From a virus, in the IMG/VR virus record IMGVR_UViG_3300033802_000183: 44,948 nt of DNA; one strand, 5' to 3'. The position numbers were made by a program, and so were the translations under genes. Shown here in pieces: positions 1 through 44,948 of the stretch. The notes under the pieces were generated by a model. It ran no database searches. It had not been told where the DNA came from and saw only the letters and a program-made list of their open reading frames with translations. Within the stretch, counting starts at the first letter, position 1; the number at the start of each line of letters is the position of its first letter.

Positions 1-127
1 CGCACCGCCCATTCCTCGCCAACATTCGGTGCAAATTGGGAACGTTTTTCCGTTCTCCTCCACCATGCCTACAGCGTCGTTAATGTTGCACAGATCGCAC
101 AACATCAGGCATCACATCCCACATTTC
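1..127. repeat. Terminal direct repeat, copy 1 (assembly overlap of a circular contig)
   Basis: Bases 1-127 (cgcaccgcccattcctcgcc...cacatttc) read identically at 44822-44948. Confidence 0.95.
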
Positions 128-2776: not shown

Positions 2777-3154
2777 TCACTGAAAAACTTCCAGTATTTC
2801 TTTTAATGCGTAGTATTCTGGATTGAATATTTGAAGTATTTTATCTGGCAAAGATAAAATTGTTGCTAGTACGAAAACAAGGTTTAATATACCGAAAATT
2901 GACAATGTTAAGAGAAAAATGAATTCAATATCCTTTTCACAAAGATCATTCCAGTTATTTATCGTGTATCGAGCAAACTTAAATGTTAATAACGACAACG
3001 CTAATACTCCGATAATTAAAACTATTGAAAGTACCCAACCTTCTACATACTTTTGCCTAACCAAAGTTTCAAACACATACTCACTTGCAACGCCTAAACT
3101 TTTAGCGATTTGGTCAATGTATTGCATGATTTTTTCTTGTAACTGTTCGTTCAT
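2777..3154 (-). CDS. Membrane protein, two predicted TM helices
   Basis: Start moved to the ATG at 3154 after GAAGGAGG. Hydrophobic stretches WVLSIVLIIGVLALSLL and IFLLTLSIFGILNLVFVLATIL. Confidence 0.65.
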   Translation of the reverse strand: MNEQLQEKIMQYIDQIAKSLGVASEYVFETLVRQKYVEGWVLSIVLIIGVLALSLLTFKFARYTINNWNDLCEKDIEFIFLLTLSIFGILNLVFVLATILSLPDKILQIFNPEYYALKEILEVFQ

Positions 3155-3651: not shown

Positions 3652-3894
3652 TCAAAACATTGTAAGTTGTTCCGGTTCCGGCACGTACGGTTTCGACCGC
3701 TTGTCAAACTGCTCCGCAATCCATCGTCCGCAATAGTTGTCGGCGCGGAAAAAGACGATTTCGTATTTGCCGACGATATGCCGGGCGACCTCGCGAACGG
3801 GTTTTCCGTCGAGCATGTGCGTCCAGTTTCCGGGCGATTGTGCCAGGATTTCCTGCGTTAGTCGGACAGATTCGGCATAGGTGATGTGTTTCAT
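3652..3894 (-). CDS. Hypothetical protein
   Basis: 80-aa ORF whose start overlaps the next gene by 4 nt. Confidence 0.6.
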   Translation of the reverse strand: MKHITYAESVRLTQEILAQSPGNWTHMLDGKPVREVARHIVGKYEIVFFRADNYCGRWIAEQFDKRSKPYVPEPEQLTMF

Positions 3895-5135: not shown

Positions 5136-5944
5136 TATTCTTCACCGGATAAACGATAGTTCAATTCCAATCCGCCCTGCAGCAGTACTGCATAATCCCT
5201 ACACATTTCGTATAGCCGTGAACCTATGGCCATATCGAAGGCGCAAATCCGGTCAAAGTCCCATTCAGACGAAATAAGAATTGGCAGATTGTTCAGATAA
5301 CGGTGATTGACGATTGCAAATAATTGCTCGCGTTGAAACTCTGTAGGTTTTTCCCGGCCCTTAAAAAGATCGTCGATGTAAAGCACCGGAACCGTCTGCA
5401 ACCTGTAGACTTTTTCTTCGCTCAAGTCCAGGTTAGCCTTCAAGTTGTTGAACCCTTCCACCCAGGGGAAGTACAGGACCCCGACTCCGTTTTGCATTAG
5501 GTTGTTTGCTATGGCCATGAGCAGATGAGTTTTTCCGCAACCTGGAACGCCCAACAAAGCAATGCTGTTTCTCCGTTGGTGCCGGATATTTTCAAAGTCT
5601 GCGACATATTCCTTTGCTGCTTCGTAAGCGTCTTTTACCGCCTGCGGACGGCCTTCAACATCGAAATTGTCAAACGTTTTTTTGCGAAATTCCTCTGTAA
5701 TTTGACTTGCCTTAAACAAGCGTTCAATCCGTTTTCTTTCCGCACATTCACAAAACTTCCATGCTTCCGACCCATCTTCGCGTGTAATGATAAACCCTTC
5801 TTCATCTCGGCATTTAGGGCATTGATACACTCTTTCGGTTAAGTCTTCCGACTTTTCCGCCTGTAATTGACGGATACGGTTGATCCTCTCTTGAATCGTA
5901 TCCATGATGCTGGACATTGATTGCAACATCCTCACCACCAGCAA
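5135..5944 (-). CDS. DnaC/DnaI-like helicase loader (IstB-like AAA+ ATPase)
   Basis: Walker A GVPGCGKTH, Walker B LYIDDL and an N-terminal CPKC...CEC zinc module. The start is uncertain (5944, 5929, 5917 or 5905). Confidence 0.85.
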   Translation of the reverse strand: MLVVRMLQSMSSIMDTIQERINRIRQLQAEKSEDLTERVYQCPKCRDEEGFIITREDGSEAWKFCECAERKRIERLFKASQITEEFRKKTFDNFDVEGRPQAVKDAYEAAKEYVADFENIRHQRRNSIALLGVPGCGKTHLLMAIANNLMQNGVGVLYFPWVEGFNNLKANLDLSEEKVYRLQTVPVLYIDDLFKGREKPTEFQREQLFAIVNHRYLNNLPILISSEWDFDRICAFDMAIGSRLYEMCRDYAVLLQGGLELNYRLSGEE

Positions 5945-6662
5945 CTATTTTTTTAACAGGATGGGATTTCATTATCCGTAACGTGATTTGATCCCATTTT
6001 TTCCGTAGGTTTGCAGGAGATAAAATGACAGTACTCCAAAAATCATCTTGTGAAACCCAGTCAATGACTTTGGCTACTTCATGCGCATCTCTTTTGTCAA
6101 TCTCCATGAGCTTACGCATATCATCAGCCCATTTTTGCAAATCGGGTTCTTTGAAATCCGGTTTGTTCTCTTTGATCTTCGCCAGCAAATATGATGCAGC
6201 GCGATAAGGAACACTGTCTTTGTCGTAAACTTGTTTGCGACGAGAAGAATTATTATTTTTATTTATATCTTTTCTATGTCTATTAATGGTCAAGTGTTGG
6301 TCCGCTGTTTGGTCAAGTGTTTGGTCAAGTGTTTGGTCAAGTGTTTGGTCAAGCGTTTGGTCGTCTGATTGGTCAAATGATTTGACCAATGAAATCATTT
6401 TGTATGAACCTGCTTGTTTTCTATTCCCTGGTTTGTAATCAATAAGTCCCTTTAGTTTTAATTCATTCCGTGCGTCGGCCAAGCCCTGCTTTGAGATCTT
6501 CGCCAACTGTTGAAGCGTTGAATTCGGCACTGTAAACCACTCTGACCACCCAGCCATGTTGTTTACGGACATCAATGTGTACCATAAAGCAACTCCGCTT
6601 GTGGTCAACGGGTTTAACATTAGCCAATCCCTAAACGCGTTCAACTCTCGGAAAAATTTCAT
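5814..6662 (-). CDS. Replication initiator / replisome organizer with a DnaD-like C-terminal domain
   Basis: The ATG at 6662 (MKFFRELNAF) is in an ATGA overlap. The N-terminal winged-helix-like region and the C-terminal YLLAKIKENKP...WDQI segment resemble the DnaD/DnaB_2 domain. Confidence 0.8.
   Translation of the reverse strand: MKFFRELNAFRDWLMLNPLTTSGVALWYTLMSVNNMAGWSEWFTVPNSTLQQLAKISKQGLADARNELKLKGLIDYKPGNRKQAGSYKMISLVKSFDQSDDQTLDQTLDQTLDQTLDQTADQHLTINRHRKDINKNNNSSRRKQVYDKDSVPYRAASYLLAKIKENKPDFKEPDLQKWADDMRKLMEIDKRDAHEVAKVIDWVSQDDFWSTVILSPANLRKKWDQITLRIMKSHPVKKIVAGGEDVAINVQHHGYDSREDQPYPSITGGKVGRLNRKSVSMP
6288..6389. repeat. Iteron array (8 tandem ~12-bp GGTCAAGTGTTT-type units) ending in a 21-bp perfect palindrome; candidate phage origin
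   Basis: Units start at 6288, 6299, 6311, 6323, 6335, 6347, 6359 and 6371. The palindrome TTGGTCAAATgATTTGACCAA is at 6369-6389. An AT-rich tract at 6243-6285 is adjacent. Confidence 0.7.
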
Positions 6663-9767: not shown

Positions 9768-10001
9768 TCATAAATCTTTAATTTCTTTTGTAGAATGATC
9801 TAATTGCAACGTTTTTTCCGGCAAATTGTATTTCGTGGATAATTCTTTCCATAATTTCCTCTCTTTTTCTTTTGCCTTGGTCATTCGATCAACCAATGCG
9901 TCCTGCAATTTAGTAATGGCTTCGATTTCATAATTAATCTTCATAAAAGCGTCAGATTCTTCCTCGGTAACTACAGCATAGACCTTTTTTACCCGATCCA
10001 T
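9768..10001 (-). CDS. Hypothetical coiled-coil protein
   Basis: 77-aa ORF. Confidence 0.6.
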   Translation of the reverse strand: MDRVKKVYAVVTEEESDAFMKINYEIEAITKLQDALVDRMTKAKEKERKLWKELSTKYNLPEKTLQLDHSTKEIKDL

Positions 10002-10100
10002 TTACTTCCGCTTCCTCCTTTCGTTGATCTCAAGAGCAATCAGCAATACCACACAAACCAATGCAATCAGCCAAAATCCCGGATATTGAATGAGAATCAT
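10002..10100 (-). CDS. 32-aa single-TM micro-protein (hand-called)
   Basis: MILIQYPGFWLIALVCVVLLIALEINERRKRK. The stop abuts the next ATG and the start overlaps the upstream stop. Confidence 0.35.
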   Translation of the reverse strand: MILIQYPGFWLIALVCVVLLIALEINERRKRK

Positions 10101-11640: not shown

Positions 11641-11669
11641 ATTATACGTTGGCGTACTGCCAATGTCAA
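11641..11669 (-). promoter_or_regulatory. Early (PR-like) sigma-A promoter, perfect TTGACA-17-TATAAT
   Basis: On the minus strand, -35 is at 11669-11664 and -10 at 11646-11641. The whole spacer is occupied by an operator palindrome. Confidence 0.8.
11649..11663. promoter_or_regulatory. Operator palindrome TTGGCGTACTGCCAA
   Basis: TTGGC-N5-GCCAA dyad. Related GCCAA half-sites occur at 11624-11628 and 11709-11713. Confidence 0.7.
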
Positions 11670-11677
11670 TAATTTTT

Positions 11678-11692
11678 TTGGCTAATTGCCAA
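11678..11692. promoter_or_regulatory. Operator palindrome TTGGCTAATTGCCAA
   Basis: Second TTGGC-N5-GCCAA dyad, 29 bp from the first and upstream of the TATAAT at 11721-11726 that serves the repressor gene. Confidence 0.65.
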
Positions 11693-11750: not shown

Positions 11751-12101
11751 GTGGTGAGTGAAATAAAAAAAGTGCTTGGAGAAAGATTAAAGGCGGCTAG
11801 GGAGAGAAAAAATTTAAAGCAGAACAGAGTGGCGCATTATTTGGGCATACACAATAGCACATTAGCGAAGTATGAATCTGGCGAAAGAGAGCCAGACATA
11901 GAAACAATTAATAAACTAGCTCGATTATATGAGGTTTCGGTTGATTATCTTATGGGAAGGTCTGAGAAAGAAACAAAGGTCATTGAAAAATCATACGAAT
12001 TAGATCAATTAGATAAAGAAATCGTTAATATAATAACGAAAATGCCCAAAGACGATAAAAAGCACATTGTTGAATTCATGAAGAGATTTATAAAAAAGTG
12101 A
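11751..12101 (+). CDS. CI-like XRE-family repressor
   Basis: LKAARERKNLKQNRVAHYLGIHNSTLAKYESGEREP HTH plus a C-terminal extension. GTG start. Divergent from the cro-like gene. Confidence 0.85.
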   Translation: MVSEIKKVLGERLKAARERKNLKQNRVAHYLGIHNSTLAKYESGEREPDIETINKLARLYEVSVDYLMGRSEKETKVIEKSYELDQLDKEIVNIITKMPKDDKKHIVEFMKRFIKK

Positions 12102-12457
12102 GATGGTTATCGATGGGCTTAAATCTTATACCCATTGAAGAGTACAGGAAAATTAAGAATTCTGACCAAAATGAAGCAAATGAAACTCCGTTTAACACAT
12201 CTGTTCAAACCAATTATTGGGATATTTTAAATTCAGATTATGAACGTTTGAAAGCGGACATTAACGGGGACGGGAAAATAGATTATAACGAATACCGTGA
12301 TTTCATTATCTCAACTAACGAACAAAGAGTTTATCCGAAAAGCATAGATAACGTTCACCACTATTATCATCTTGATTTTACTGTTTTATTAGCGATTGGG
12401 ATGATATGTATAACCATGCTAATTAAAACCTGGTTAAATAAAAGGGGCTCATTTTAA
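12098..12457 (+). CDS. Membrane-anchored protein with a canonical EF-hand loop, co-transcribed with the repressor
   Basis: DINGDGKIDYNE (12257-12292) fits the DxNxDGxIDxxE pattern. C-terminal TM helix FTVLLAIGMICITMLI. The start overlaps the repressor stop (GTGA); an alternative ATG is at 12113. Confidence 0.65.
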   Translation: MRWLSMGLNLIPIEEYRKIKNSDQNEANETPFNTSVQTNYWDILNSDYERLKADINGDGKIDYNEYRDFIISTNEQRVYPKSIDNVHHYYHLDFTVLLAIGMICITMLIKTWLNKRGSF

Positions 12458-12607
12458 TGATTTAGCCATAATATCAATTTTTTCGTTTAACAAGTTGACT
12501 AATTCAGGATATTTCCCAAAATTCTTAACATACAATATCAACTCTTCTAATTGTTCGATCGTCGCATTTTGGATGAAGCGCTTTATTGTTTCCTTATCAC
12601 TATCCAT
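12449..12607 (-). CDS. 52-aa hypothetical protein
   Basis: Track ORF 12449..12688 trimmed to the ATG at 12607 after GAGAGGGGG. Confidence 0.45.
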   Translation of the reverse strand: MDSDKETIKRFIQNATIEQLEELILYVKNFGKYPELVNLLNEKIDIMAKSLK

Positions 12608-12728
12608 TTGAAAACCCCCTCTCAGGATAGTGTCTCTATTATAATACGAACAAACGTTCCTATCAAGGAAATATATTCCTATATACATAATATTCGGAAT
12701 ATTTTTTATTAAAGGGAGTGTATGTTAA

Positions 12729-13945: not shown

Positions 13946-15367
13946 ATGCGTGTAGCAATCTATATTCGGGTTAGTACAGATGAACAAGTTCAGCAAGGCT
14001 ACTCCATCGACGCTCAAAAAGAGCGTCTTATTGCGTTTTGCAAGTCCCAGGGATGGAATGACTATAGTCTCTACATAGACGATGGGTACACAGGCACAAA
14101 TTTAAACCGGCCTGCCATGAAAAGATTAATCCGTCATGCCGAAGAAAAAGAAATTGATTTGGTTCTCGTCTACAAACTGGACCGATTAGGACGGAAACAA
14201 AAAGATGTTCTTCATTTGCTTGAAGATGTGTTCGAGAAACACAACGTCGCCTTTAAATCCGCAACAGAGCCTTTTGACACGTCTACTCCACTTGGAAAAG
14301 CCATGATTGGGATATTAGCCGTATTTGCCCAATTGGAACGGGATATGATTGTTGAACGAACCACCACAGGACGGCGCCAAAAAGCCAGTCAAGGCATTTG
14401 GTACGGCGGCAGGATTCCTTTCGGGTATAATTGGAACCAACAAACGCAAACGCTTGAAATCGTGCCGGAAGAAGCTGCAATTGTAAAAGAAATATTCAAA
14501 CGGTATTTGCAAGGGCAGTCCAGGCTTGCGATTGCAGAATGGGCTTCCAGTCGGACAAAAGCGAGATTTTTTGATCATTGCGTAATCCGTGATATGCTCG
14601 CAAGACCCATATATATGGGAAAATTGGTGAATGCCGGAACTCTGGTTGAGGGAAAACACGAACCAATCATCGACGAAGAAACCTGGTATGCTGTTCAAAG
14701 GGAATACAGTCGGCGCAAAGACGGGTTATCACCACTAGGCGATTACTTGCTGACTGGATTATTAGAATGCGGCGTGTGCGGATCGGGGATCGTTCACGTC
14801 AAACGAATTACGCATAAGCGGAACAAAACATATCAGTACGATCTTTACGCTTGCAGAAATCAACATGTTCGGAGAAAGGATAGGAGTGATTATTGCGATT
14901 TAGGATATTTCCGCAGAGAAAAAATTGAGGAATGGGTTGTTGAGGAAATGAAATCCGTGGCACTAAAGCCTAAAAAAATCAATGAATTTATCAAACAAAA
15001 ATCCAGGCATACCGTAGATCAAAACCTTGTTTCCTCCCTCGAAACGAAACTAAAAGCCGTTGTAGAAGGCCTGGAAAATCTGTACGAAGCGATCCAAACA
15101 GGAGAGATCAAAGCATCATACGTCAGCGGTCGTATCAAAAAGTTGGAAGAAGAAAGGGAAGCTATTGAGCGGCAGTTGGAGGATTTGAAAGATGAAATGC
15201 CGAAAATTATAGAACCCAGGAATATGCTTTACCTCGTTCGCGAAGTGGCAGACGCATGGGACTTACTTACCGAAGACGAGCAAAAGATGATGATTCGCAA
15301 AGTTATTAAGAAAGTGATATTGAAAAAAGACGAAGATCCGGAAATTGTTTGGAACGTTGTTGAATAA
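13946..15367 (+). CDS. Large serine recombinase (integrase)
   Basis: MRVAIYIRVSTDEQ catalytic-Ser N-terminus, resolvase domain, recombinase domain, Cys-rich zinc ribbon (CGVCG...C) and a C-terminal coiled coil. Confidence 0.95.
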   Translation: MRVAIYIRVSTDEQVQQGYSIDAQKERLIAFCKSQGWNDYSLYIDDGYTGTNLNRPAMKRLIRHAEEKEIDLVLVYKLDRLGRKQKDVLHLLEDVFEKHNVAFKSATEPFDTSTPLGKAMIGILAVFAQLERDMIVERTTTGRRQKASQGIWYGGRIPFGYNWNQQTQTLEIVPEEAAIVKEIFKRYLQGQSRLAIAEWASSRTKARFFDHCVIRDMLARPIYMGKLVNAGTLVEGKHEPIIDEETWYAVQREYSRRKDGLSPLGDYLLTGLLECGVCGSGIVHVKRITHKRNKTYQYDLYACRNQHVRRKDRSDYCDLGYFRREKIEEWVVEEMKSVALKPKKINEFIKQKSRHTVDQNLVSSLETKLKAVVEGLENLYEAIQTGEIKASYVSGRIKKLEEEREAIERQLEDLKDEMPKIIEPRNMLYLVREVADAWDLLTEDEQKMMIRKVIKKVILKKDEDPEIVWNVVE

Positions 15368-34895: not shown

Positions 34896-36407
34896 TCAAA
34901 CCCCTTTCACCAGTCCCCATTTTTTGAGCAAATACGGCCTTAATTCAGCCGGCGCGTTCCAATAGTCTTCTTGGTAGTCTTCCGGCAGTTTCGACAAATC
35001 AAAACTCTGTTCAGCTTTCACGGTCATGCTCTGCTGATCCCGGATGAAATACGTGATCGCCAGCCCCATAATCAAATCGTCATGCGCTCCCTCTTGAGCT
35101 TCCGGCTTGCCGTTTTCGTTTTTCACGAAAGTAAGCATTTCTTCTAGCGTCTTGATATCGTTAATCAAGTGGACCGATTCCTTCACAATCGCAACCAAAT
35201 TCGATATGATGAGCGGACGCGTGATTTTCCCCGTTTGGAAACCGAAGCTTTGCCGCAACTTGTGCGTGTAGCTGTCCTGGACTTCGCGCACATAAAGCTT
35301 CGGGTAGCCCCATTCTTCCAGCTTCCGCGTGGGATACGTGGAAAAATTGGTTTCCAAGCCGATCAGAGCGGTGTTGTAATAGACACCCAAACAATAGATT
35401 TGCTTTGCATAGTCGATTTCGTCATATTGCTGATGTAACACAGCAACTTGTTTTCCTGTCGTGTTGTCGATGACATGTCCCGAAAACCAATCGGATCCCT
35501 CACCAGCTGTATCGCCGCCTAACACGTATGGGTAACACTCTTTCACGTCCTCAAACAGCGTAATTGCCCCGTTATCGTCTTCTACAAAGCGGATAGTACC
35601 CTCTATCGGCTTGCCGCCTTCTGTCTCTTCAAACGAAAAATAGCCCCGTTTCAGAGGCTGTTTGTCACGTAGATATGCAATTCGGTTTGATACGATTTCC
35701 GCCGGGAATATGGTTTTTCCAAGCACACCCCATTCGCCTAAGGCGTAGACCTGGTAAAAATATGGGTCCGTGTCTTTGAATCCTTCAAGTACCTTTTTTT
35801 GTTCGTCATCAAGGAACCTATTGTCCTTGTACGTGCTGTGCATCGTTGTGGCGTTTTCTTTCTGTTGATCGAAGAATTCTTTTTTCAGCCAGTGGTTTAT
35901 ATCGACCGGGTTAAATGTGATGATCATTTGTTTGTAGTTGGCTGATTTCCCGCGCAAACGAATATCAAGCTGTCTAAAGTCTTCCGGCGTGATTTCGCTG
36001 GCTTCTTCAATCCATATGCCTGTCACGCCAGAAATGGATTTCAGCTTTTCCACATCATCCAACCCGGCGAACAATATTTCGTTTCCGTTTGCGCACTTGA
36101 TATGAAGATCGCCCTTGTGTATTTTGAAAAGTTGCCCTAATCCCCAGCGATGAATGACGTTGCTTAGCTCTGCATATACCGATTCCCGCAGCGTTTTTGC
36201 GACTTTCCGGAGCACCAGAAAACGATGCCCTTTTTCGCTCAGCATCCGCAAAATGATCTTTTGCGCGGCGAAAACGGATTTCCCCGAACCACCGCCCCCG
36301 ACAAGCACCAAATAGCGGTCTTGGTTCCAGTAGAGCGGGTAAAATTTTTCATTCGTCAGTTTCGGCAGTTCGGTCAGGTCAACCTTCACCGTCGGCATCT
36401 GTATCAC
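34896..36407 (-). CDS. terL: Terminase large subunit (PBSX/Terminase_3-like)
   Basis: Walker A LVGGGGSGKS. C-terminal nuclease acidic residues GGDTAGEGSDW ... HDD. Confidence 0.92.
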   Translation of the reverse strand: MIQMPTVKVDLTELPKLTNEKFYPLYWNQDRYLVLVGGGGSGKSVFAAQKIILRMLSEKGHRFLVLRKVAKTLRESVYAELSNVIHRWGLGQLFKIHKGDLHIKCANGNEILFAGLDDVEKLKSISGVTGIWIEEASEITPEDFRQLDIRLRGKSANYKQMIITFNPVDINHWLKKEFFDQQKENATTMHSTYKDNRFLDDEQKKVLEGFKDTDPYFYQVYALGEWGVLGKTIFPAEIVSNRIAYLRDKQPLKRGYFSFEETEGGKPIEGTIRFVEDDNGAITLFEDVKECYPYVLGGDTAGEGSDWFSGHVIDNTTGKQVAVLHQQYDEIDYAKQIYCLGVYYNTALIGLETNFSTYPTRKLEEWGYPKLYVREVQDSYTHKLRQSFGFQTGKITRPLIISNLVAIVKESVHLINDIKTLEEMLTFVKNENGKPEAQEGAHDDLIMGLAITYFIRDQQSMTVKAEQSFDLSKLPEDYQEDYWNAPAELRPYLLKKWGLVKGV

Positions 36408-36834
36408 CCTGCGGCAGTTTCACGACGATTTCAAGCCCGCCGTCAAGTTCAATATCCCGCTTATCCCGCCACACAGCGGGCCTTCTATTCTTCAACCAAA
36501 ATATCTGCGCCGTTACATCCGGCAAAACTTCCTTTGTCACGCGCTTTGTGACAACCATGTTTCCGTCTTTGTCGCGTTCCCGCGTGATTTCCTCATATGT
36601 GTAACCCATTGCACGCTTCAGCAGCGCGTTTTCGACTTCTATATCTATGTCATCTTTTCCCCTTTTAAGGGCCTCTGTGAACTCTGAATACTTGTTTTTG
36701 TATTCATACAGCGTAGCAACGCCGATCCCCAAATTATGCGCGATTTGCTCATCCGTCAGGCCGTCTCTGGCCCAAGCTTCGACTTTATTCAGTTTGGGTT
36801 TGACGTGACTTTCGTACTTGCTGGGCCTGGCCAT
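36379..36834 (-). CDS. terS: Terminase small subunit (HTH type)
   Basis: MARPSKYESHVKP ... GLTDEQIAHNLGIGVATLYEYKNKY. The ATG at 36834 follows AAAGGAG. Confidence 0.85.
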   Translation of the reverse strand: MARPSKYESHVKPKLNKVEAWARDGLTDEQIAHNLGIGVATLYEYKNKYSEFTEALKRGKDDIDIEVENALLKRAMGYTYEEITRERDKDGNMVVTKRVTKEVLPDVTAQIFWLKNRRPAVWRDKRDIELDGGLEIVVKLPQGDTDADGEG

Positions 36835-36874
36835 ACTTTTCACTCCTTTCCTACAAACAATACTTAAAGAAAAA

Positions 36875-36890
36875 ACACCCTTTCGGGTGT
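36875..36890 (-). terminator. ACACCC-N4-GGGTGT hairpin + U-tract (copy 3 of 3), just upstream of terS
   Basis: The minus strand reads ACACCC-GAAA-GGGTGT followed by TTTTTTCTTT. Confidence 0.6.
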
Positions 36891-36908
36891 GCCGTGCCAG
36901 ATTACGTA

Positions 36909-37154
36909 TCAAACATATTTCGTTTTTGTATTTTTGAAAAATATAAAAAGCATTTCTTCTGTCTTTAGATCATCTTTGCCACGTATTAAAAAATTATGAT
37001 GTGAGTATTCACCGCTAAAATAAACATCGTCTCGTCTTATCTCTACTTTTCCTTTGCCTGCGGTTAAAATCGCCATCAAGTTAGCAATATCATTTCTTTC
37101 TTGTTGTAGGATGCAATTCCCACCGTCTTCGGCATCACAAAAATTAACCCACAT
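36909..37154 (-). CDS. Hypothetical protein (first late-operon ORF)
   Basis: 81 aa with an AAAGGGAGG SD. Confidence 0.6.
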   Translation of the reverse strand: MWVNFCDAEDGGNCILQQERNDIANLMAILTAGKGKVEIRRDDVYFSGEYSHHNFLIRGKDDLKTEEMLFIFFKNTKTKYV

Positions 37155-37374
37155 TTTTTATCGCCTCCCTTTGTCCAATTTCGACACAAGGAAGGGATTT
37201 CCTGCGCACACTAAAAAAATTAAAAGACTGTACTTCTACCCCGCGCAGTCCTCGCGGCTATTTCCCCCCTTCTCGCATTTTGCCCACAAGATTGAGAAGC
37301 TGGAGTTAATGCTTTCAATTTATATAGGTTTTTTTGTATGACATTTGCACGACATATGATAAAAGTTCACAATT

Positions 37375-37395
37375 TGTTCGTATTATGTTCGTATT
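37375..37395. repeat. Tandem direct repeat TGTTCGTATT x2 abutting the -35 of the island promoter
   Basis: Copies at 37375-37384 and 37386-37395. Candidate operator. Confidence 0.5.
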
Positions 37396-37422
37396 GACAT
37401 TGTATTATTTGCGTGTTATGAT
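37394..37422 (+). promoter_or_regulatory. Strong sigma-A promoter TTGACA-17-TATGAT driving the plus-strand island
   Basis: -35 at 37394-37399 and -10 at 37417-37422. Confidence 0.75.
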
Positions 37423-37453
37423 AAAGTCAAACAAAAGGAAAGGGATGGTAAAG

Positions 37454-37906
37454 ATGAAAAAATGGTTTGTCGATCAAGTATTTGTCCGGGAAGGGCAGGT
37501 GTATGATCGAGGGTACTACATCCGCGAAGATGGCGTCATCGAATGGACGGAGCCGATCAGAAACGGCGAAACGCACGAATTCCCGATCAGCGAATGTACT
37601 CATCGAGACGGAAACCCGATCATGATTGAAGACGGGGAACTGCTTGGAGTGTTGCAATCAGTTCACATCCAAGTGCAAAACTCCGGTTTCTACGGTGAAG
37701 GAATTGACGGAACCTGGGCTGAAATGATGGTAGAAGTTGGCACCCACGTAGAAGGTTGGAATACTTACGACGTAGAACGCACGGAGTGGCATTATCCGTA
37801 TCGCCACTACTGGGGTACACTGGATGATGAAAACGGAAAACCGATCTACAATTTTTACGCTATAGTCTCTGAAAATGACGCAGACATTGAAATTGAAAAG
37901 AAATGA
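37454..37906 (+). CDS. Island protein 1, hypothetical (150 aa)
   Basis: Track ORF 37334..37906 trimmed to the ATG at 37454 (an alternative is 37445) after AAAGGAAAGGG. Confidence 0.65.
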   Translation: MKKWFVDQVFVREGQVYDRGYYIREDGVIEWTEPIRNGETHEFPISECTHRDGNPIMIEDGELLGVLQSVHIQVQNSGFYGEGIDGTWAEMMVEVGTHVEGWNTYDVERTEWHYPYRHYWGTLDDENGKPIYNFYAIVSENDADIEIEKK

Positions 37907-37997
37907 AGCCCGTCGGTCTGGACCACCGGCGAGCTTCGGGGCAGAGAATTGGAAGCCCTCTGCCCCTCCATTATAACATATTTTGGAGGGATAAAAC

Positions 37998-38351
37998 ATG
38001 AATATCATCGAAAAGAAAGTATTGCATGAAGGTTATGGAGCTGACGGAAAATCTGTAATCTTGGCCGAATTAGCAAACACATTCGCTATTTATTACTACA
38101 TTCACGCCGAAGACCGTTATTTTCTCATCGACACAGCGGATTCAAATTATGAGGCAAAGGAAATGTTTGACCGTGAAATCAAACGTCATGAAATCCAAGA
38201 ATCGATCTTACGGGTAGCCCAAAAACGGGTTGAACGCGGAGCGACACAAGAACATGTTCGAACTTTCCAAGAAAAACTACTCCAAAAATGGTTTGATTCA
38301 GACATCAGGCAGTTTATCGAACACCTTGATCGGATGGTGTTCGAGGAATGA
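37998..38351 (+). CDS. Island protein 2, hypothetical (117 aa)
   Basis: GGAGGG SD; good ORF. Confidence 0.65.
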   Translation: MNIIEKKVLHEGYGADGKSVILAELANTFAIYYYIHAEDRYFLIDTADSNYEAKEMFDREIKRHEIQESILRVAQKRVERGATQEHVRTFQEKLLQKWFDSDIRQFIEHLDRMVFEE

Positions 38352-38581
38352 TAAGCAACACCATAAAGATCAACCTAACGGACGGCAACGAAATTATTAC
38401 CCGCATCAACGGAACGCCTGATGATATTTTCCGGCACTACCAGAACAACAACGTTGACACCTTTAGCAGCGGACATCCGCAAGTCAAGCGCATTGAATTT
38501 GTCGAATCGCCCTTGCTGGAAAAACATAGTTCATATGTATATCTGTTCATCGATTGGAATGGGAACGGACTTTTGCAATAA
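38348..38581 (+). CDS. Island protein 3, hypothetical (77 aa)
   Basis: ATGA overlap with protein 2. Confidence 0.6.
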   Translation: MISNTIKINLTDGNEIITRINGTPDDIFRHYQNNNVDTFSSGHPQVKRIEFVESPLLEKHSSYVYLFIDWNGNGLLQ

Positions 38582-38673
38582 TCCGCCTGACGATGGCTGG
38601 TTGGCTGCCAGCCGAAACCGGGCTTGTCCCGGTCGCGGGAAGCCGCAATAAAATCTTTGAGGAGGGATTCTAT

Positions 38674-39099
38674 TTGGCAACGAAATCCGTATCAGTAAAT
38701 TTACAACCAGAAATCCTTGACGCTTTGGCCGAACGCGGCCAGCGTGCACCAACAATCAACCGGGACTTGGAGCGTCTCTATTCTCTCTACGACCGCGCTT
38801 TGCGTCGTGTCGATCTAACCATCGACGAAGCGTGCTTGATTGTTGACGCGCTCAACGGAACATTGCACGATGTTTTATCCGGCACACGCTTCTGGTTCGG
38901 CGTCCAGGATGCTATCGAATTAGACGGCCTGGACGAAAAATGGAACGTTGACGGAAAAGCGCTTATTGAAAAACTTTCCGCGCTGGATGATTTGACCGCT
39001 ATGGCGATTGTAGACGCGGCAGAAAGGTTCTGGTTTGTTGAAAAGTACCGGGAAATGGACATCCGCGAGGCTATCGCGGATGTGTTTAAAATCAAGTAA
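38674..39099 (+). CDS. Island protein 4, acidic, possible N-terminal ribbon-helix-helix (141 aa)
   Basis: The TTG at 38674 lies 8 nt after GAGGAGGG. KSVSVNLQPEILDALAERG looks like a strand-helix RHH start. The track start at 38554 was rejected. Confidence 0.55.
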   Translation: MATKSVSVNLQPEILDALAERGQRAPTINRDLERLYSLYDRALRRVDLTIDEACLIVDALNGTLHDVLSGTRFWFGVQDAIELDGLDEKWNVDGKALIEKLSALDDLTAMAIVDAAERFWFVEKYREMDIREAIADVFKIK

Positions 39100-39115
39100 G
39101 AAAGGAATGGTACCC

Positions 39116-39703
39116 ATGGAAAAGAAAAATCAAGTTTGGCTGAATCGTTTTCGCGCAGGAGATTATTCTCGGGTGTTGTATGCAGAAAGCAACCAGGCTT
39201 ATTTCGATCTGGTTGTCTTGGAAAAAATGGCCGATGGAATACCAGACTACAGCGCAATACCAGCTCCGGTACTTCACGAGATCATTTATGAAAGTGATCT
39301 GTACAACGTATCAGGAGACCAACTGCGCAATGACATCCAGGAATTTTTGGCTGACTTCGATCTGATTTCCCGCGATCAATATGATGATCTGCGTCTCGTT
39401 AGAGACGTAATGATCGCAGACAAGGATCTTTCCGACTTCTCATTTGAGGATCGGAGAATCCTAAAAGAAGTTAAAGAGTTTGGCCTGATTCTGGATGAAG
39501 TACAAAATCAGGATGGTGAAATGATTGTCACTGAGGAAATATTCTATGACGAAGGTTTGTTTTACCATCGTACTCTCGCTTGCCACGGTTCGTCTTGGCT
39601 TGGCCTAGGGACTTGCCAGTGTGTGAACCATGACTGGTACGACGATTTGCCAGTTCCTGCCAAGAAAGTGCTGGAATTGGCGAAATCAAATGTGCCAGCC
39701 TAA
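39116..39703 (+). CDS. Island protein 5, acidic hypothetical (195 aa)
   Basis: The ATG at 39116 lies 9 nt after AAAGGA. Confidence 0.6.
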   Translation: MEKKNQVWLNRFRAGDYSRVLYAESNQAYFDLVVLEKMADGIPDYSAIPAPVLHEIIYESDLYNVSGDQLRNDIQEFLADFDLISRDQYDDLRLVRDVMIADKDLSDFSFEDRRILKEVKEFGLILDEVQNQDGEMIVTEEIFYDEGLFYHRTLACHGSSWLGLGTCQCVNHDWYDDLPVPAKKVLELAKSNVPA

Positions 39704-39722
39704 TATTGGACAAAACATTTAC

Positions 39723-39744
39723 CCGCCTAAACAGGCGGTTTTTT
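39723..39744 (+). terminator. Rho-independent terminator CCGCCT-aaac-AGGCGG + T6
   Basis: 6-bp GC-rich stem with a tetraloop and TTTTTT. It is followed by an extended -10 (TGtTAGAAT, 39744-39752). Confidence 0.8.
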
Positions 39745-39771
39745 GTTAGAATGTAAACGGGAGGGTTTGCG

Positions 39772-40599
39772 ATGGACGTTGAAAAACAAGAACAAAAACT
39801 TTGGGACGACATGCGCGAGAATTGGGAGTACATCGACAAAGTTTACGCTACCTACGACGAGTACAACCAATTCAAACGCGTCACATTGTCCGAAGAACAG
39901 ATAAAAGATCCACTGGAAGCCTTCTTCCGCCCAGAAAAACGCATGTTCATGGAAGATGTTTGCTTCGTCGTCGTGCGAAATGATGAGCCGTATCGAATTA
40001 TCTTTTTGAATTATAAGCGGAATGATCTTTCTTTTCTCACCGTCTTCGACAAAGACGGGGATTTGGTTGGGAAGATGATCATCCGCGTTAATGAAGATGA
40101 CGTAAGCGCATCCTTGGACAAAAAGAATCCGATCGGTTCAAAATATCTCAAGCGCGAAGCTGAGAAATATTTTTATTATGTTCAGCCAGGTTTGAGTCCG
40201 CAGCAGATGATGAAAGAGATTGAACAGAAAGCCATCGCAAAAATCGCAGGCGAGCTAAGCGACGTGATTCAATTTATTCTGGCCGCCATGCATCATGTGT
40301 TACATACCGTCGAAGTCCGGACCGTTTCCAGCGAACCAATTGAATCTTCCCGGCCAAGCAGACCGAACCAAGGCCGTAGAAGTGCAACCATTGTTCCAAA
40401 GAAATTGACTCGTATTGTTTACGAGGGCCGGAAGGTTAGAAAAGCGCAAAGAAAAGAATTTACGCAACACGTCGATTCATGGAAGGTACGTGGTCATTGG
40501 CGGATTTACTCCGACGGCAAACGAACCTGGGTCAAGCCACATATAAAGGGTAGAAAATCAAAAAAATACCGCCCACGCGGGACGGAATACAAGATATAA
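39772..40599 (+). CDS. Island protein 6, hypothetical with a highly basic C-terminal domain (275 aa)
   Basis: GGGAGGG SD. The C-terminus WKVRGHWRIYSDGKRTWVKPHIKGRKSKKYRPRG suggests nucleic-acid binding. Confidence 0.65.
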   Translation: MDVEKQEQKLWDDMRENWEYIDKVYATYDEYNQFKRVTLSEEQIKDPLEAFFRPEKRMFMEDVCFVVVRNDEPYRIIFLNYKRNDLSFLTVFDKDGDLVGKMIIRVNEDDVSASLDKKNPIGSKYLKREAEKYFYYVQPGLSPQQMMKEIEQKAIAKIAGELSDVIQFILAAMHHVLHTVEVRTVSSEPIESSRPSRPNQGRRSATIVPKKLTRIVYEGRKVRKAQRKEFTQHVDSWKVRGHWRIYSDGKRTWVKPHIKGRKSKKYRPRGTEYKI

Positions 40600-41067
40600 T
40601 TATGCTGATTTCTTCACTTTCTCTCTTGCCCTCTCCACGTATCGTTGTACTGTGCCGCGAGATATTTTTAACTCCTTAGCAATTTCTGTGTAACTCATCC
40701 CGTAGCACATATGAAGCAGATAACACTGTCTTTCCCGCGTGGAGAGGGTCCACAGTATATCGACAATCCTGCGTTTTTCTTCATCCGTTAGCGTCCGTTC
40801 TTCCGGTTCAATGTCCAATGATGGAAACAATGCCGGATCCAATAGTGCGGTTCTGTGATACACATTCATTTTTTCGATTCCCCGCCGGTTACCTGGGCGC
40901 CGACCGGTTTTCATCCATTGCAGGGCGTAATTCATGTCACGTACCATTCCACCTACAATGCCGCGTTCTATATTCTCATACAAGTCTTCTTTGTTCAGAC
41001 TTTCTCTATATTTTTCCAATTCTTTTTTGGTTTCCTCGTATTCTCTGATGAGTTTATCCACCCACAT
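40600..41067 (-). CDS. Sigma-70 region-4-type regulator (candidate late-gene activator)
   Basis: LSTRERQCYLLHMCYGMSYTEIAKELKISRGTVQRYVERAREKV is a region-4 HTH. It is the last gene of the early operon. Confidence 0.8.
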   Translation of the reverse strand: MWVDKLIREYEETKKELEKYRESLNKEDLYENIERGIVGGMVRDMNYALQWMKTGRRPGNRRGIEKMNVYHRTALLDPALFPSLDIEPEERTLTDEEKRRIVDILWTLSTRERQCYLLHMCYGMSYTEIAKELKISRGTVQRYVERAREKVKKSA

Positions 41068-41135
41068 TACCCCCTCACCCCTCGTATATGGTATACTAGT
41101 GGTGAGAACACCCTTTCCCCTTTATGGGGATTTTT

Positions 41136-41318
41136 TTATCCCAGTTTTTGGCCTAACTTTAGTAACTCTTTACCGATCCTGCATTTTGCGCAAACGGCTA
41201 GATATTCTTTTGGTGGGCGCTTAAATTTGCTTTTCTCCGGGCAATCATCACACTGGTCAAGCAGTTCACAAATTTTCAGGCGGATTTGTTTCTTTTTGGT
41301 TTTCTGCATATTTATCAC
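41136..41318 (-). CDS. Small zinc-finger protein
   Basis: CDDCPEKS...CAKC, 60 aa. Confidence 0.6.
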   Translation of the reverse strand: MINMQKTKKKQIRLKICELLDQCDDCPEKSKFKRPPKEYLAVCAKCRIGKELLKLGQKLG

Positions 41319-44722: not shown

Positions 44723-44926
44723 TCACATCTCACGAATTTCACGTTCCAATTCAGCGCCGCACTTGTTGCAAAAGATGTTGTATTGGTCGCGGACAAACGG
44801 TTTTTCGCACACAGCACAAACCGCACCGCCCATTCCTCGCCAACATTCGGTGCAAATTGGGAACGTTTTTCCGTTCTCCTCCACCATGCCTACAGCGTCG
44901 TTAATGTTGCACAGATCGCACAACAT
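44723..44926 (-). CDS. Small double Zn-ribbon protein
   Basis: CDLC...CTEC...CAVC...CNKC. Its 5' part is duplicated at 1-105 by the assembly overlap. Confidence 0.6.
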   Translation of the reverse strand: MLCDLCNINDAVGMVEENGKTFPICTECWRGMGGAVCAVCEKPFVRDQYNIFCNKCGAELEREIREM

Positions 44927-44948
44927 CAGGCATCACATCCCACATTTC
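44822..44948. repeat. Terminal direct repeat, copy 2
   Basis: Identical to 1-127. It duplicates the 5' part of CDS 44723..44926. Confidence 0.95.

Follow-up and report, generated by a model that had tools for sequence, protein, structure and literature searches.

What are six small genes, read against the direction of their neighbours and served by a promoter of their own, doing between the late-regulator gene and the terminase genes of a phage? The question arises from IMG/VR virus record IMGVR_UViG_3300033802_000183, whose whole stretch of 44,948 nucleotides is called the window here, and in which six plus-strand open reading frames (ORFs), P1 to P6 in order, occupy positions 37454-40599. 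The answer we prefer, at about an even chance, is that this island is an accessory locus for counter-defence or for conflict between mobile elements, built like an acr-aca operon. What is established in this study is the anatomy of its genes and signals, the homology of P4 to AcrIE10, the covariation-supported fold of a hammerhead-type ribozyme, and the fact that slot, P4 and promoter block persist in phages whose cargo differs. The parts are of known kinds, namely a regulator of the AcrIE10 type, possibly an effector of the AcrVA2/FinQ type, and hammerheads such as those of prophages, and no description of their joint arrangement was found in the accessible literature. Loci used for comparison are cited by number (L001 and so on) where they have to be told apart.

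To hypothesize how such a locus would work, the strong host-type sigma-A promoter at 37394-37422 would fire once the DNA enters the cell and would transcribe P1 to P5. P1, P2, P3 and P5 would be small acidic cargo, that is, inhibitors of host defences or of rival elements, and P4, with its ribbon-helix-helix (RHH), would shut the promoter down again through 11-bp-phased TGTTCGTATT repeats beside the -35 element. The hammerhead behind the P3 stop codon would cut the transcript 39 nt upstream of P4, so that the mRNAs of cargo and regulator would have separate fates, and P6 would be made from its own extended -10 after a terminator, acting in the manner of AcrVA2/FinQ with a variable N-terminal part for target recognition and a conserved basic RGHW tail as the effector.

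The evidence that carries most of this comes from P4. The first-pass annotation had assigned none of the six proteins to a known family and had suggested that P4 may start with an RHH; P4 can now be assigned, and its RHH start is supported by matches in both sequence and fold. The P4 family is large, consisting of proteins of 140-150 aa that make up most of the 1155 phmmer matches. When a profile of 50 members was compared with the Protein Data Bank (PDB), it retrieved AcrIE10 (8ji9_D at 9.4e-5, then 9m7t, 9uer and 9m71 at about 8e-4 to 9e-4) and nothing credible beyond the AcrIE10 entries, with profile positions 33-149 aligned to residues 17-127 of 8ji9_D, across both the strand-helix-helix and the helical domain, at a sequence identity of 17-19%. 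The AlphaFold 2 model of P4 (predicted local distance difference test, pLDDT, 95.9; predicted template modelling score 0.87) gave the same answer in a Foldseek search of the PDB, where the best four matches are AcrIE10 chains (probability 1.00, template modelling (TM) score on the target 0.69-0.72, root-mean-square deviation 3.0-3.6 A) and all later ones have a TM below 0.3. The N-terminal strand is unformed in the monomer model, as is expected for an RHH that completes its sheet as a dimer. Judged by sequence and by modelled fold, P4 is a remote AcrIE10 homologue, and it is a candidate autorepressor of the Aca type. The near-identical contig L001 has ATG at the codon where P4 of the window has TTG.

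AcrIE10 is a bifunctional plasmid protein: with its RHH domain it acts as a dimer of dimers to repress the acrIE9.2-acrIE10 promoter, and with its helical domain it binds Cas7 (PMC13530269, PMC11317147). P4 has the same two-part fold, an RHH and a small helical domain, and, like AcrIE10 in its operon on Klebsiella conjugative plasmids (PDB 8JI9, 9M71, 9M7T), it belongs to a short operon of small genes carried by a mobile element and lies at or close to the operon's 3' end, behind a strong promoter whose elements are overlapped by closely spaced repeat sub-sites. The two systems differ in that the element here is a phage of a Bacillota host and not a plasmid, in that a ribozyme stands between P4 and the upstream genes, and in the operator, since the island repeats are direct with an 11-bp period, whereas AcrIE10 uses an inverted repeat with a 2-bp spacer.

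The promoter had been proposed from the sequence as TTGACA-17-TATGAT, and it is indeed found there (-35 TTGACA at 37394-37399, a 17-nt spacer, and -10 TATGAT at 37417-37422), with 11 of 12 consensus positions and, in addition, a TG extension at 37414-37415. Promoter-like sites are as frequent across the region as chance would have them (8 found, 8.0 expected), and this one scores best and is conserved in other phages. The tandem TGTTCGTATT repeat is likewise exact, at 37375-37384 and 37386-37395, and belongs to an array of units of about 11 bp that contain TTCACA (37366), TTCGTA (37377) and TTCGTA (37388) and that abuts and overlaps the -35. The window and two diverged phages, L008 and L053, have an identical 32-base block, CA(C/A)ATT(T/A)TGTTCGTATTATGTTCGT(A)TTGACA, outside which the divergent intergenic DNA cannot be aligned; this block of promoter and repeats is under constraint. 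An exact 18-mer of the repeats is present in 15 viral contigs. P4 is the sole protein common to L053 and the window within 10 kb of L053, where the block is identical, and the predicted DNA-reading strand residues of the two P4 proteins are the same; farther loci that bear P4 have different direct repeats at their promoters, again with an 11-bp period (L060, GGTATTGA twice; L058, CGGTG twice). P4 is the best candidate for binding the repeats, though the matter is not settled. Two other binders were considered and rejected: the main phage repressor, because the immunity operators are TTGGC-N5-GCCAA palindromes, and LexA, because the GTTC units are direct and not inverted as in a Cheo box.

The repeat motif is not confined to the island. 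A minus-strand near-consensus promoter, TTGATA-17-TATAAT at 12638-12666, has TTTGTTCGTAT in its spacer, which is a third copy of the motif; it would drive an ORF of about 52 aa (12449-12605, minus strand) on a transcript antisense to the repressor operon (11751-12457, plus strand). GTTCGTAT occurs four times in the window, with 1.2 copies expected. Elsewhere, behind the shared island promoter, L008 (about 6005-6045), L053 (about 3665-3705) and L057 (about 3100-3140) have a conserved leader rich in GC, AAGGCCGACAGCCGACGA(C/T)AAGGGCGGCGGGC, which the window lacks.

The surroundings of P4 in related phages tell what is kept and what is exchanged. In L008/L055, L056, L057, L058 and L060 a plus-strand island occupies the same slot, between TerS and the late regulator, and in each of them P4 is kept and its neighbours differ. 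The slot of L008 holds ten genes, including a homologue of the P1 C-terminal domain (P1-C), a RadC gene, a P4 homologue (62% identity) and a P6 homologue (36%), and that of L057 holds P1-C and P4 without P6. L001, which is otherwise 96-100% identical to the window, carries an extra acidic gene of 69 aa exactly between the ribozyme and P4. P6 relatives stand alone in 35 of 37 viral loci, and the P4 family reaches far beyond this phage group, usually as the last gene of short variable operons. Whether the six genes travel together had been posed as a check, with lack of conservation as a unit counted against the roles suggested for the island; the idea of a conserved unit has to be rejected, as the relatives of P6 are mostly alone and those of P4 have other neighbours, but turnover of cargo around a kept regulator is the very pattern of acr-aca loci, and on these comparisons the island is a variable cargo region of that kind. 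That the island is an accessory module with its own promoter is supported. As a detail of the exchange, positions 142-392 of L001 replace 38649-38670 of the window, which amounts to the gain or loss of a single cassette.

The same comparisons bear on a reading of P4 and P5 as a type II toxin-antitoxin or addiction pair, with P4 as the RHH antitoxin and P5 as the toxin behind it. P5 is co-transcribed and lies 16 nt downstream of the RHH protein, and some members of the P4 family are fused to XRE helix-turn-helix (HTH) or HNH domains, as would suit such a pair. We nevertheless consider it highly improbable, given that the position after P4 is occupied by P5 in the window, by P6 in L008, by an HTH protein in L057 and by others again in L053 and L056, a different gene each time, and that P5 is acidic, has a Cys3His motif, matches no toxin family, and has homologues that occur without P4.

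It is quite unlikely, in our judgement, that the six are ordinary regulatory or early phage genes with no role in conflict, P4 being a lytic transcription factor (for the late operon, for example) and the rest dispensable fillers. Against such a view, close relatives swap cargo but retain their structural and replication genes, P3 and P6 have homologues on conjugative elements and among arrays of small genes, and the P4 family is far wider than the phage group. What speaks for it is the location, precisely in the space that separates the late regulator from the late operon, with the repeats in a shared divergent control region, upstream of the late operon as well, where they could serve the late activator. 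The motif copy in the promoter spacer at 12638-12666 suggests, in the same vein, a regulator with targets beyond the island, and the 18-mer occurs in phages without P4, namely in six other phage contigs that have no P4 relative within the 4-14 kb of DNA fetched.

Alignment of the DNA upstream of P4 homologues first exposed an RNA motif in the gap between P3 and P4, which the first-pass annotation did not contain. Directly after the P3 stop codon follow CCGC-CUGACGA, a hairpin, GAAAC, a second hairpin and GUC-GCGGG-AAGCC, which is the layout of a hammerhead with an open stem I. Its core consists of C3UGACGA9 (38587-38593), stem II (38595-38613), GAA (38614-38616), stem III (38617-38633), GUC (38632-38634) and the 3' strand of stem I, GCGGG (38635-38639), and the AAGCC tail may pair with GGC of loop II. 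The order of the hammerhead core is present, with A38617 paired to U38633 (A15.1:U16.1, which is A-U in 121 of 123 distinct family members) and C38634 at the cleavage site. Cleavage is predicted between C38634 and G38635 and, if the ribozyme is active, would part the P1-P3 mRNA from the P4-P5 mRNA.

A pattern scan found the ribozyme in 68 viral contigs, and a covariance model built from ten copies, under which the window copy scores 69 bits (E 7.6e-13), found 140 copies in 71 loci, with at most six per locus and all on one strand. In the alignment of these 140 copies, pairing is present in 96.9% of cells, as compared with 76.8% in shuffled alignments (0 of 500 reached the observed value) and 28-45% with slid partners, and for 16 of the 17 pairs both partners change, figures to be read with the alignment being fitted to the model and with stem I and the AAGCC tail being partly fixed by the search pattern. 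The hammerhead fold is supported by this covariation, and self-cleavage is predicted. None of the hammerhead models of Rfam 15 reported the element at E<=1 (36800-41200), at E<=10 (38560-38690) or at the gathering score (12 related loci), and an identity as twister, pistol or hatchet is unsupported by Rfam. With the prophage hammerheads of Perreault et al. 2011 (PMC3088659) the family shares the CUGANGA / GAAA / A15.1:U16.1 / GUC core, three covarying stems, and a placement of the copies, of which a phage often has several, among small genes on the same strand. It differs from them by one extra nucleotide between A9 and G10.1:C11.1, by the open stem I with near-invariant CCCGC/GCGGG and AAGCC tail, and in going unreported by the hammerhead models of Rfam 15.

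The ribozyme immediately precedes a P4-family gene in four loci (the window, L053, L054 and L056), 27-40 nt before the start codon. Homologues of the cargo keep similar company: those of P1 adjoin ribozymes in L161 and L008, where two copies flank the P1-C gene, and those of P2 adjoin a hammerhead in L110 and L111. Pistol and twister-sister ribozymes, a known company of hammerheads in prophages (PMC3088659), are called by Rfam in the same phage loci (L145 4921-4994; L151 4751-4822, 7777-7854 and 8141-8215; L161 5967-6041). In L161, the P1 homologue (5493-5975) stands between a hammerhead (5484-5561) and a twister-sister. In L108, L130, L154, L162, L129 and L137, four to six hammerhead copies are interspersed with small ORFs on one strand.

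From this we draw a further and doubtful proposal, that self-cleaving ribozymes are a working part of phage counter-defence operons, where the cut would free the P4 mRNA and would set the burst of inhibitor and its shut-off post-transcriptionally, and where ribozyme and leader elements would serve as junctions for the exchange of cassettes. The junction part is based on the insertion in L001 exactly between ribozyme and P4, and from the ribozyme-flanked homologues of P1 and P2 elsewhere. If it is true, arrays punctuated by ribozymes would point to a large store of anti-defence genes still to be tapped, among them the families of P1, P2, P3 and P5, and prophage hammerheads would have a function, a question open since 2011. 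In any case, here is a widespread hammerhead subfamily, uncalled by Rfam, that is tied to a set position in an operon, directly upstream of a regulator gene, and this defined position makes the purpose of prophage hammerheads directly testable.

P1, P2, P3 and P5 belong, as far as their sequences tell, to uncharacterised families. In L010, a homologue of P3 is one of a long series of small genes, among which are LPD18, GmrSD_N, methyltransferase and HNH genes. P5 ends in a module with the invariant residues C156, C167, C169 and H172 in ENQxGE...CxSSxxxGxGxCxCxxH, which form a probable zinc site. The Pfam copy searched has no model for this module, which is duplicated in some homologues (P0005, P0108, P0140), including lysine- and glutamate-rich proteins of 406-611 aa. 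The gap between P1 and P2 holds a conserved RNA element, also absent from the first-pass annotation. This leader is found in eight phage loci, ahead of different genes, and compensatory changes are seen in 12 of its 25 predicted pairs, while Rfam gave no match for 37905-37990. Its third hairpin, which is invariant, pairs CCUCC with GGAGG, the Shine-Dalgarno sequence of P2, and would hide the ribosome-binding site of that gene; the leader may act as a translational switch or a processing site, or may belong to another ribozyme class.

P6 is a separate question. Its C-terminal module reads W-x-V-R-G-H-W-R-x-Y-x-x-G-K-R-x-W-V-K-P-H-x-K-G, and while full-length homologues number only a handful, the module is widespread on proteins with unrelated N-termini in phages and plasmids, among them conjugative Bacillus cytotoxicus plasmids, Paenibacillus plasmids, Brevibacillus phage Sundance, Bastille-like Bacillus myophages and many viral contigs. 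In Clostridium phage phiCp-A, a P6-family gene lies in the lysogeny module, between an ImmA-like protease and the integrase and co-oriented with the repressor. The closest homologue (54% identity) is on a conjugative element of the Tcp type (L005), where a true AcrVA2 homologue (E 9e-22 to 7ci1) lies two genes upstream, with one unannotated ORF of 68 aa in between. The whole row at 7819-10810 of L005 consists of an acidic protein of 221 aa, the AcrVA2 homologue (309 aa), the 68-aa ORF (9888-10094) and the P6 homologue; with transfer genes on one side and an actin-like partition gene on the other, it has the look of an anti-defence cluster of a plasmid.

In AcrVA2 and FinQ the N-terminus varies and the C-terminus is conserved, and translation-coupled loss of mRNA depends on H286, R288 and H291 of the conserved part; FinQ, an AcrVA2 homologue, inhibits a rival plasmid. 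P6 resembles them (PF26125; PDB 7CI1) in joining a variable N-terminal part to a conserved basic R-G-H-W module and in the spread of its family over phages and conjugative plasmids, and H242 of P6 is the equivalent of AcrVA2 H291, with the adjacent R-G and W kept. A precomputed PF26125 AcrVA2-like label is borne by 8 of 36 profile relatives of P6; the local Pfam copy apparently lacks this model, and the true AcrVA2 homologue went unmatched in the local Pfam scan although PF26125 is precomputed for the same protein. P6 itself has no precomputed Pfam match. BLASTP of P6 against AcrVA2 aligned the motif alone (E 0.02), and the P6 hidden Markov model (HMM) gave no match to the true AcrVA2 homologues in L005 or in L048-L051. 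A match of the P6 profile to 4o2x was dismissed as a low-complexity lysine-rich stretch, a search of the PDB with the P6 sequence gave nothing credible, and Foldseek searches of the PDB and BFVD with the P6 model gave no informative match, leaving a confident N-domain with no structural neighbour.

Several results weigh against a role in counter-defence, those on P6 first. AcrVA2 H286 and R288 are replaced by W and V throughout the P6 family, so that two of three residues are lost; hhalign of P6 with AcrVA2 gave probabilities of 15% and 21% over about 95 collinear columns; AcrVA2 was absent when the P6-family profile was compared with the PDB at E<=10; and it was absent again when the P6 model was searched against the PDB with Foldseek, where all TM scores were 0.2 or lower, with the reservation that the C-terminal module is modelled at pLDDT 67-82 and a small-domain match could be missed. 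By these five tests (BLASTP, hhalign twice, PDB profile and Foldseek), membership of P6 in the AcrVA2 family is not established, and homology is unproven; that P6 works like AcrVA2/FinQ is plausible. Regarding P4, the AcrIE10 residue E78, which is needed for Cas7 binding, aligns to a variable column of the family (G76 in P4) and is not conserved, and only the role of a regulator is inferred from the homology, with no Acr activity. The repeats found in phages without P4 and upstream of the late operon, as described above, belong here too, as does the P4 homologue of L008, which has other strand residues in front of the same repeats. As for the ribozyme, RNAfold of the window copy alone did not give the hammerhead junction as the minimum free energy structure (z -1.4), and a GCGG-GAAG-CCGC hairpin competes with stem I; since stem I is not recovered by single-copy folding, the structure rests on covariation. 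Searches of the PDB and family libraries with a P1 profile, P2, P3 and a P5 profile found no informative homologue, and no island protein closely matches a characterised anti-defence protein. Finally, the host is known only as an uncultured Firmicute, so that no defence system can be named as the target.

Of the roles first suggested for the island (defence, anti-defence or superinfection exclusion), anti-defence is the best supported, by the P4-AcrIE10 relation and by the motif of P6 together with the AcrVA2 neighbour of its closest homologue, and support comes also from the RadC gene in the slot island of L008, from the acidity of P1 to P5 and from the lack of any PADLOC defence protein. Defence itself found no support in PADLOC-DB 2.0, where none of the six proteins has a match at E<=1. 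This last result also bears on a module for lysogenic conversion or exclusion, expressed from the prophage to protect the lysogen against other phages or plasmids through defence, superinfection exclusion or fertility inhibition as by FinQ. A promoter and terminator of host type, in an orientation opposite to the neighbours, are the classic layout of a moron, P6 has a constitutive-looking extended -10 of its own, its relative in phiCp-A lies within a lysogeny module, FinQ acts on a rival plasmid, and the phage is temperate. Such a module is still unlikely in our view, as scans of the families found no effector-type domain in addition to the PADLOC result, the sole firm homology, that of P4 to AcrIE10, leads to an anti-defence regulator, and P6-family genes are also present in large lytic Bacillus myophages.

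If the counter-defence reading is true, P1, P2, P3 and P5 are four candidate families of inhibitors against defence systems of Bacillota, the AcrIE10-type RHH regulator extends from enterobacterial plasmids to phages of anaerobic Firmicutes, and a second large family with an RGHW tail may act like AcrVA2/FinQ on other targets.

The features on which the argument draws, and the main genes around them, are collected in Table 1. All six ORFs of the first-pass annotation are present with the lengths it gave, and they are judged to be real genes since every one has protein homologues (best phmmer E-values: P1 2.8e-52, P2 1.8e-29, P3 5.1e-16, P4 4.2e-61, P5 1.5e-40, P6 N-domain 8.4e-47, from an exhaustive search of 1.84 billion representatives with P1-P5 and the P6 N-domain concatenated as a single query). 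Its further signals also hold: the ATGA at 38348, where the P2 stop and P3 start overlap, the internal terminator with a stem at 39723-39738 followed by a T-run, and, directly after it, the extended -10 TGtTAGAAT of P6 at 39744-39752. P4 and P5 had been called strongly acidic, which is correct (isoelectric points, pI, of 4.61 and 4.40), and P1 (4.48), P2 (5.40) and P3 (5.39) are acidic as well; P6 is basic as claimed (9.53), with a basic tail. Its statement that all flanking phage genes are on the minus strand is true of the immediate flanks (sigma70 region 4 protein, an 81-aa ORF, TerS and TerL), while the phage has a second plus-strand block, the lysogeny module at about 11.2-15.4 kb. Scans of the six proteins with Pfam, PHROGs, NCBIfam and PADLOC gave no usable assignment, the sole match being that of the P6 C-terminus to phrog_10678, of unknown function (1.5e-12), and no nuclease, ATPase, TIR, membrane or other effector-type domain was found in them by Pfam and NCBIfam.

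Table 1. Positions of the island features and of the neighbouring and lysogeny genes in the window (pI, isoelectric point).
Feature	Position	Strand	Remarks
Island promoter and phased direct-repeat array	37366-37422	+	units of about 11 bp
P1	37454-37906	+	150 aa, pI 4.5; domains 1-68 and 68-150, found separately in homologues
Conserved structured leader, P1-P2 gap	37905-37990	+	two covarying hairpins and a third, invariant
P2	37998-38351	+	117 aa, pI 5.4
P3	38348-38581	+	77 aa, pI 5.4
Hammerhead-type ribozyme motif, P3-P4 gap	38582-38644	+	open stem I; covariance model
P4	38674-39099	+	141 aa, pI 4.6; TTG start after GAGGAGGG; N-terminal ribbon-helix-helix and helical domain
P5	39116-39703	+	195 aa, pI 4.4; Cys3His C-terminal module
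Intrinsic terminator and P6 extended -10	39723-39752	+	stem and T-run, TGtTAGAAT
P6	39772-40599	+	275 aa, pI 9.5; alpha/beta N-domain 1-180, disordered basic linker 182-238, conserved C-terminal module
Terminator-like hairpin and T-run, within P6 3' end	40559-40585	-	
Sigma70 region 4 protein (late regulator)	40600-41067	-	end of early/middle block
TerS	36379-36912	-	
TerL	34896-36407	-	
XRE repressor	11751-12101	+	
Large serine recombinase	13946-15367	+	

The ends of the window (1-127 and 44822-44948) are an identical 127 bp, from which a circular assembly and a complete phage genome of 44,821 bp follow. The phage is temperate, to judge from its serine integrase and XRE repressor, and its minus strand also carries an amidase and structural genes. 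At the immunity switch (11641-11692), a perfect consensus promoter, TTGACA-17-TATAAT (11641-11669, minus strand), overlaps two TTGGC-N5-GCCAA palindromes (11649 and 11678), which are the probable operators of the XRE repressor and bear no relation to the island repeats. The same phage is present, at 96-100% identity, in four further metagenome contigs, and the whole island gave no blastn match among 50,697 phage records. The nearest genomic relatives of the P4 gene are in metagenome-assembled genomes of Moorellaceae, Pelotomaculum, Desulfotomaculaceae and other Bacillota (a search with a narrower P4 alignment, which found Bacillota genomes only), hence the assignment of the host to an uncultured Firmicute.

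At the far end of the island, the stop codons of P6 and the converging sigma-like gene abut with zero spacer (40597-40602). Early transcription that converges from that gene would stop at the hairpin inside the P6 3' end, and as P6 has no terminator of its own, its transcript would read antisense into the late-regulator gene. The GC content is 45.3% in the island and 44.8% in the window, and the island is not foreign by composition.

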